A stretch of 64,000 nt of DNA from Escherichia phage vB_EcoP_PE006. Below the pieces are notes generated by a model, which had not been told where the DNA came from, made no database searches, and saw only the letters and a program-made list of their open reading frames with translations. The translations under genes and the position numbers were made by a program. The stretch lies in sequence record OQ938541.1; one strand, 5' to 3'. Shown one piece after another: positions 52,001 to 52,564 of the stretch (position 1 is the stretch's first letter; each line of letters starts with the position of its first letter).

Positions 52001-52564
52001 TTAGTAAGACACATCGCCACTTGAGTGGGACATGTTGCTCTTGACGAAGTAGCAATACTTGCCAAGACCTTCATTAATTTCTTGAAGCATACTCTGATCA
52101 ACTGGATAAGTGGCTAAATCACCATCAAACTCATCCATCTTCTCAATAATACACATCAAGGTCATGCACATATCAGAGAGCATACCGTCCATATCTAGGT
52201 CAGCATTACCCTCTGAGAACCAAGCATGGGAGAGATAATTGGCTGCTGTAGCGTCCACTTTAACACAGTGGTAACGCATACGTTCAGCAATACGATCTCC
52301 TACTTGTCGTGCGTAATCTTCCAGCTCATCAAACATACCATGAACACCCTGAAATCCTGCACCAGAGACGTTCCAGTGGTAGTTTTTAGCTTTAATATGC
52401 AAGAGTTCCATGTTAGCTTGTAAGCAGCTCAGGATGTGTTCTAGGCTGTTTCCACTAATCATACCCTGCATTGTTTCAAGGCGAGAGATTGAAAGCTCAG
52501 ATCGGTCTAACATATTGTATTCGACACGACCAATATCAGGTAAATCAAAGACATTCTTATGCAT
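52001..52564 (-). CDS. Dps / ferritin-like protein (start possibly at internal Met)
   Basis: NYHWNVSGAGFQGVHGMFDELED matches the Dps ferroxidase-centre helix pattern (HW.V.G..F...H..F.E). Confidence 0.55.
   Translation of the reverse strand: MHKNVFDLPDIGRVEYNMLDRSELSISRLETMQGMISGNSLEHILSCLQANMELLHIKAKNYHWNVSGAGFQGVHGMFDELEDYARQVGDRIAERMRYHCVKVDATAANYLSHAWFSEGNADLDMDGMLSDMCMTLMCIIEKMDEFDGDLATYPVDQSMLQEINEGLGKYCYFVKSNMSHSSGDVSY

Follow-up and report, generated by a model that had tools for sequence, protein, structure and literature searches.

Introduction

The closest known relatives of the gene analysed here are those of other Kuravirus phages. Gene product gp67 of phiEco32 (ABY52868) has been annotated since the 2008 genome and is entered in GenBank EU330206 as 'DNA-binding protein; member of the Dps family'. 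The SU10 paper described the orthologous CDS67, with a DPS domain and a mass of 21.2 kDa, and placed it together with CDS68 among the few genes common to all five C3 phages then known. Mass spectrometry of SU10 detected CDS67 with six peptides (35.8% coverage), the most among the middle-gene products. Further afield, the Dps proteins of Grimontviridae (SE131, 7-11 and Privateer) and of the Aeromonas phages of Lahexavirus are true relatives of 31-45% identity, which are shorter and carry short basic tails; those of Lactobacillus plantarum myophages and of the gut-phage group 'Gratiaviridae' represent separate acquisitions, with identities below 20% in structural alignments. In each of these groups, the gene stands alone and lies close to genes of DNA metabolism. 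The Dps genes of Lactobacillus phages and gut 'Gratiaviridae' have been discussed in the literature as antioxidant genes, and the Privateer homologue was found by mass spectrometry in CsCl-purified virions, its function being called unverified in the corresponding paper. No experimental study of any phage Dps was found in our literature search.

Transcription in phiEco32 involves the phage sigma factor gp36 and gp79, a small protein that displaces sigma region 4, inhibits the sigma70 and sigmaS holoenzymes of the host and activates transcription that depends on gp36 (PMC12276001; PMC8948821). In phiEco32, gene 68 is among six genes listed downstream of gp36-dependent promoters, and six such promoters were identified experimentally (PMC8948821; PMC4281155).

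The Dps identity of the present gene is thus already known from phiEco32, and its recovery is an ordinary finding. What is added here is confirmation of the metal ligands and the fold, doubt about DNA binding, a unit comprising promoter, gp68, dps and hairpin, and the lineage-wide pairing of gp68 with dps.

The dps gene and its Kuravirus orthologues

The window, i.e. the whole stretch of 64,000 nucleotides analysed from Escherichia phage vB_EcoP_PE006 (OQ938541.1), contains the Dps-family mini-ferritin gene, hereafter dps, at 52001..52564 on the minus strand. It was assigned from the open-reading-frame list, Pfam, PHROG and PDB matches, AlphaFold2 (AF2) and Foldseek results, tblastn and the phiEco32 annotation. 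The reading frame runs from an ATG at 52564..52562 to a TAA at 52003..52001, is preceded by a GGAG at 52577..52574, 9 nt 5' of the ATG, and encodes 187 residues (plus the stop codon) with a mass of 21.2 kDa. A longer frame from a TTG at 52600 is possible, but this start is used by no homologue, all of which begin with MH(K/N)N (alignment A1). Plus-strand reading frames overlapping dps, such as 52226..52423 and 52410..52592, are unlikely to be genes because codon-level constraint in the Dps frame is strong.

The source phage is a Kuravirus (Gordonclarkvirinae). Over a 5-kb stretch around dps, identity to Escherichia phage 172-1 is 97%, and 97 phage records match this stretch. The encoded protein is 100% identical to that of 172-1 (AVV18_gp085), 98% identical to SU10 CDS67 and 97% identical to phiEco32 gp67. 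These orthologues agree with the present gene in length, position, neighbours, promoter motif and downstream hairpin, with no substantial difference.

Several GenBank records, including 172-1 KP308307, XT73, IMEP8, ES17, KM01, IME267 and KBNP1711, label the Kuravirus gene 'integrase'. This identity was rejected: the sole Pfam domain of the product is Ferritin-like, its PHROG match is family 3636, and it has no integrase or recombinase domain.

Family membership and predicted fold

The dps product matched Pfam PF00210 (Ferritin-like domain) with 31.1 bits against a gathering threshold of 24.5 (E 2.5e-7), and PHROG 3636 with an E of 2.6e-55. A phmmer search against PDB chains returned M. smegmatis Dps2, B. 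subtilis MrgA and B. anthracis Dlp-2 as top matches (~1e-9, best E 2.6e-9), and all matches below E 0.5 were Dps or Dps-like ferritins. When a family profile comprising 16 relatives was used against the PDB, 53 matches were obtained, 53 of them Dps, with a best E of 6.3e-15. E. coli Dps (1DPS/1F30) is a remote relative (phmmer E ~0.1), although its ligands align exactly. The corresponding NCBIfam equivalog model, NF006975, was not reached (34.5 bits vs a cut-off of 114), and the NCBIfam DpsA models likewise gave scores under their cut-offs; the product is therefore not equivalent to E. coli Dps or DpsA.

A monomeric AF2 model, built on an alignment of 16 relatives, had a mean pLDDT of 80, with 82-96 in 10-residue blocks across residues 41-180. 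Helices were assigned to residues 41-65, 71-98, 107-112, 125-146 and 154-177, so that the predicted fold follows the Dps pattern, in which a four-helix bundle (A-D) is accompanied by a short BC helix within the long crossover loop. Foldseek against the PDB gave Dps or Dps-like proteins in all of the top 50 matches; typical compact matches had a target-normalised TM score of 0.8-0.9 and an rmsd of 1.1-1.6 Å over ~137 columns. Solved Dps structures from Firmicutes and Actinobacteria (B. anthracis Dlp-2, 1JIG; B. subtilis MrgA, 2CHP; M. smegmatis Dps2, 2Z90; L. innocua, 1QGH) share the fold, the ligands and the adjacent Trp at 19-27% identity, compared with which the phage protein is extended by 40 acidic residues at the N terminus (net charge -2) and by a C tail of 11 residues.

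The N-terminal extension (residues 1-40; 52445..52564, minus strand) was characterised from alignment A1, the charge table, pLDDT and dN/dS. It occurs only in the Kuravirus-type clade, where its start, MH(K/N)NxFDLP, is conserved and R28 is invariant. In the AF2 model, it has a pLDDT of 40-58 and a low-confidence helix at residues 18-37.

The ferroxidase centre

The ferroxidase-centre segment, which spans the end of helix A through helix B (52283..52378, minus strand), was delineated in a three-way alignment with E. coli and L. innocua Dps, for which the reference sequences were exact full-length matches to PDB 1f30 and 1qgh, respectively. The motif HW.V.G..F...H..FDE corresponds to residues 63-80, HWNVSGAGFQGVHGMFDE, at 52378..52325 (minus strand). 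Five ligands align one-to-one with both references: H63 (codon 52378-52376; E. coli H51, L. innocua H31), H75 (52342-52340; H63 and H43), D79 (52330-52328; D67 and D47), D90 (52297-52295; D78 and D58) and E94 (52285-52283; E82 and E62), all on the minus strand. The same applies to W64, the Trp beside the ligands (52375-52373, minus strand; W52 and W32). None of the six positions varies within the Kuravirus-type clade, in which identity falls to 48% (alignment A1), or in Salmonella phage SE131, Proteus phage 3H10_20 and Aeromonas phage 4_4572 at 29-42% identity (alignments A3 and A5).

We regard it as practically certain that the dps product is a divergent member of the Dps family, and as likely that it forms an active ferroxidase dodecamer. 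The preliminary description of this DNA, drawn from the letters and the reading frames, had proposed a phage-encoded Dps/ferritin-like protein with a well-preserved ferroxidase pattern. Its phage origin is borne out by the match to 172-1 and the 97 phage records, and its family by the above-threshold Pfam score, the PDB matches, the fold, the ligands and purifying selection. The profile search and the prediction of a four-helix bundle, suggested there as checks, both agreed with the proposal, and the loss of ligands on careful alignment, which would have spoken against it, was not observed for any ligand.

Distribution, selection and origin

Near-full-length matches to the dps product were found by tblastn in 96 phage records, compared with 97 Kuravirus-like records, so that essentially every sequenced Kuravirus member carries the gene. 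Weaker relatives were detected in Grimontviridae, Lahexavirus and a few Streptomyces and Synechococcus phages, and the homologues in Grimontviridae and Lahexavirus sit in the same nucleotide-metabolism module. The gene is retained throughout the prolate (C3) podophage lineage.

Comparison with phiEco32 gave a dN/dS of ~0.07 for the whole gene. The core of 137 codons showed zero non-synonymous changes at a dS of 0.15 (dN/dS <0.03), and the N-terminal 40 codons were less constrained, with a dN/dS of 0.13-0.32.

Among 1.84 billion cluster representatives, two matched below 1e-30, 13 below 1e-10 and 616 below 1e-3; the scarcity of close matches indicates that the phage clade is a small and isolated branch of the Dps family that has diverged deeply. 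Because the host Dps is only remotely related, the gene was not captured from the host, and since its G+C content (42.2%) equals that of the genome (42.3%), it is an old resident gene rather than a recent acquisition.

Putative transcription unit and neighbouring genes

Directly 5' of dps lies a gp68-like gene (52557..52886, minus strand; 109 aa, phrog_10984), the stop of which overlaps the dps start by 8 nt, an arrangement that suggests translational coupling. Proteus phage 3H10_20 and Aeromonas phage 4_4572 each have a homologue (35-36% identity) directly 5' of dps. When viral contigs were scanned, a gp68 homologue was located 5' of dps on the same strand at 11 of 11 loci of the C3-podophage type and was adjacent to it at nine of these; it was absent at seven more distant viral Dps loci (L018-L024). 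In SE131, the gp68 homologue is placed ~1.3 kb upstream of dps, and ThyX adjoins dps instead. In this 7-11/SE131 group, the stop of the ThyX gene and the start of dps share one base (L003, 2297..3402; ThyX gene 2297..2962, dps 2962..3402), so that the coupling partner of Dps is the flavin-dependent thymidylate synthase in place of the gp68 homologue.

The gp68-like protein matched no Pfam or NCBIfam family. Its AF2 model, with a pLDDT of 63, displays a five-strand SH3-like barrel plus a helix, from which Foldseek retrieved Tudor, PWWP and SH3 barrels, all with E >0.02. An identity as a FeoA-like, iron-related SH3 domain was also considered and found no support. A functional partnership of gp68 and dps is plausible.

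The 72-nt gap upstream of the gp68-like gene contains AAATGTATATA (52924..52934, minus strand), which matches the phiEco32 gp36-holoenzyme element tAATGTATAtA at 10 of 11 positions and recurs in the equivalent place in phiEco32 and 172-1. It is the probable middle promoter of the gp68-dps unit. The weight of this assignment lies in position and conservation rather than in the number of motifs, since 7 of 100 shuffled sequences also reached four matches. Further matches to the element, TAATGTATAT(A/T), occur on the plus strand at 15194..15204, 32222..32232 and 41685..41695, and presumably correspond to the late promoters described for phiEco32 and SU10. A scan for sigma70 promoters around dps yielded sites no more frequently than in shuffled sequence.

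On the other side, a terminator scan located an 11-bp G+C-rich hairpin followed by a T-rich stretch (51965..51993, minus strand), which starts 8 nt past the dps stop and has a folding energy of -15.9 kcal/mol (z -2.15). Its position is kept in four other Kuravirus loci, in one of which the stem is altered and still pairs. The hairpin may be a terminator-like or an mRNA-stabilising 3' end. Together, these features suggest that gp68 and dps belong to a short middle unit close to its promoter, with putative transcript ends and with dps as the second gene. Such a unit fits the observation that CDS67 topped the peptide counts of middle proteins in SU10.

The surrounding middle-gene module is devoted to replication and nucleotide metabolism and includes ThyX (50224..50880), thioredoxin (~51102..51374) and dCTP deaminase (53575..54108), as well as polymerase genes. 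ThyX enzymes have an oxidase side-activity; the literature on ThyX and H2O2 provided no usable support for ThyX as a local peroxide source. A gp79 homologue is encoded at 58902..59147 (minus strand) and was found by tblastn to be 100% identical to phiEco32 gp79. Four paralogous small genes of 65-69 aa (phrog_4939, E 1e-24 to 1e-29) occupy 50896..51105, 52959..53168, 53168..53377 and 53377..53574 (minus strand), three of them in tandem just 5' of the gp68-dps unit and one beside the thioredoxin gene; their products share a TRK.AR..KK motif and end in VYY, VHY or KEY. Two tandem small hydrophobic paralogues (61 and 59 aa; phrog_9296) follow directly past the dps hairpin at 51565..51750 and 51760..51939 (minus strand).

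The product of dps is rich in sulphur, with five Cys and 15 Met; its clade relatives have 3-10 Cys, and E. coli and Listeria Dps have none. The stretch D131-M132-C133-M134 in helix C is nearly invariant in the Kuravirus-type clade, and the thioredoxin gene is situated ~600 bp downstream of this Cys/Met-rich gene.

Proposed role in infection

The best explanation of these data, which we consider probable, is that dps encodes a dodecameric scavenger of Fe(II) and H2O2 acting in the middle, replication phase of infection. The protein would be made in that phase and, by analogy with cellular Dps, twelve subunits would assemble into a hollow shell whose dimer interfaces would hold twelve ferroxidase sites, to each of which one subunit would contribute H63, H75 and D79 and its partner D90 and E94. 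If they work as in cellular Dps, these sites would oxidise Fe(II), with H2O2 as the preferred oxidant, and the resulting Fe(III) would be stored inside the shell. Both Fenton reagents would thereby be removed while phage DNA and nucleotides are synthesised, which would lessen hydroxyl-radical damage. For an antioxidant and iron-scavenging role in infection as such, we judge the case to be about evenly balanced.

A need for a phage-borne Dps could arise from the transcriptional takeover of the host. Induction of E. coli dps occurs via OxyR with sigma70, and via sigmaS. As gp79 blocks transcription by both sigma70 and sigmaS, the shut-off would also block induction of the host gene, and the phage would supply its own Dps. 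Such compensation would be only part of the reason, since phages of the 7-11 type keep Dps and have neither gp79 nor host shut-off (PMC8948821).

Alternative readings

Instead of scavenging, the protein might condense replicating phage DNA or the host nucleoid, as E. coli Dps does in stationary phase, and most GenBank records indeed call it a 'DNA-binding protein'. Its composition argues otherwise: 14 basic against 29 acidic residues give a net charge of -15 and a pI of 4.7, and the N tail (40 aa) and the C tail have net charges of -2 and -1, respectively. Across 16 members of the Kuravirus-type clade, the charge of the N tail ranges from -2 to +1, whereas the lysine-rich N tail of E. coli Dps, which mediates DNA binding, has a net charge of +3. 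A Lys/Arg-rich tail of this kind, as in DNA-binding Dps of the E. coli type, was not found in the dps product. L. innocua Dps is of similar acidity (net -12), is likewise devoid of a basic tail and is not known to bind DNA. Strong acidity and the missing basic tail suggest that protection is probably achieved by chemical scavenging rather than by coating of DNA, and, judged from these residues, the 'DNA-binding protein' label is doubtful for the Kuravirus clade. Elsewhere in the wider lineage, DNA binding may occur, given that the shorter homologues of Grimontviridae and Lahexavirus have short N tails with a net charge of +2 to +3. The DNA contact could also be supplied by the gp68-like protein, which is perhaps an SH3-like barrel, a fold that often binds nucleic acids, and the weak best Foldseek match of which was a PWWP domain bound to ssDNA; at E >0.02 and a pLDDT of 63, however, this fold assignment is not significant. 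Overall, we find coating of DNA by the dps product unlikely. Three roles had been offered in the preliminary description, among which iron and peroxide scavenging fits best, and nucleoid compaction or direct coating of DNA is the least supported in view of the net charge, the pI and the acidic tails.

A slightly less probable reading places the protein in the virion, either in the head or on the particle, where it would guard the packaged genome or enter the next host, much like the ferritin cargo of encapsulins. Pointing in this direction are the Dps homologue in CsCl-purified Privateer virions, the detection of CDS67 in concentrated SU10 phage, and the conservation of the extreme N terminus (MHNNxFDLP) and of a C-terminal Tyr. 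Long proteins of uncultured phages in BFVD that carry a Dps-fold domain and are named prohead protease also belong here. On the other hand, dps is a middle gene in the replication module, outside the late structural cluster, and ferritin-like shells loaded with iron could, owing to their density, band together with phage in CsCl. Furthermore, polymerase, thioredoxin, PhoH and early-gene enzymes were present in the SU10 sample as well, so that it was no clean virion preparation, and the SU10 cryo-EM study with its supplements names gp20-24 as head ejection proteins and nowhere mentions Dps or gp67. The BFVD matches to the Dps model are uncultured Caudovirales proteins of 290-763 aa, among which A0A6J7XDU5, A0A6J7WPK9 and A0A6J7WIS1 are named 'Prohead protease'. 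In a fusion with a prohead protease, the Dps domain would bring a mini-ferritin into the procapsid, much like encapsulin cargo.

Equally speculative is the idea that gp68 and dps constitute a two-protein module peculiar to prolate podophages, in which a small, possibly SH3-like gp68 tethers an acidic, DNA-blind Dps shell to phage DNA, the replisome or the procapsid. Such tethering would explain the presence of Dps in purified Privateer virions and would parallel the fusions of Dps with prohead protease in uncultured phages; if true, gp68-tethered Dps would be the phage counterpart of ferritin cargo in encapsulins.

It is likewise improbable that iron handling, rather than antioxidant protection, is the main role of the protein, which would then lower free Fe(II) and so reprogramme the Fur regulon of the host, or keep iron for iron-dependent enzymes of nucleotide synthesis. 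The ferroxidase site is intact, and in the Aeromonas relatives dps has nrdD and nrdG as neighbours, the genes of the anaerobic ribonucleotide reductase, which depends on iron-sulphur chemistry, but Dps stores little iron compared with 24-mer ferritins, no ribonucleotide reductase is annotated between 30 and 77 kb in 172-1, the closest genome, and Fur reprogramming would have little effect once gp79 silences host transcription.

Significance

A mini-ferritin is thus kept under strong selection in a strictly lytic phage, and across a lineage with hosts among E. coli, Salmonella, Proteus, Cronobacter and Aeromonas. If the protein does scavenge Fe(II) and H2O2, two widespread annotations, 'DNA-binding protein' and 'integrase', would be corrected, and the finding would be relevant to phage therapy at inflamed, peroxide-rich or iron-rich sites. 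It would also mean that control over Fenton chemistry sets a limit to the replication of phage DNA in a host whose stress response has been silenced.
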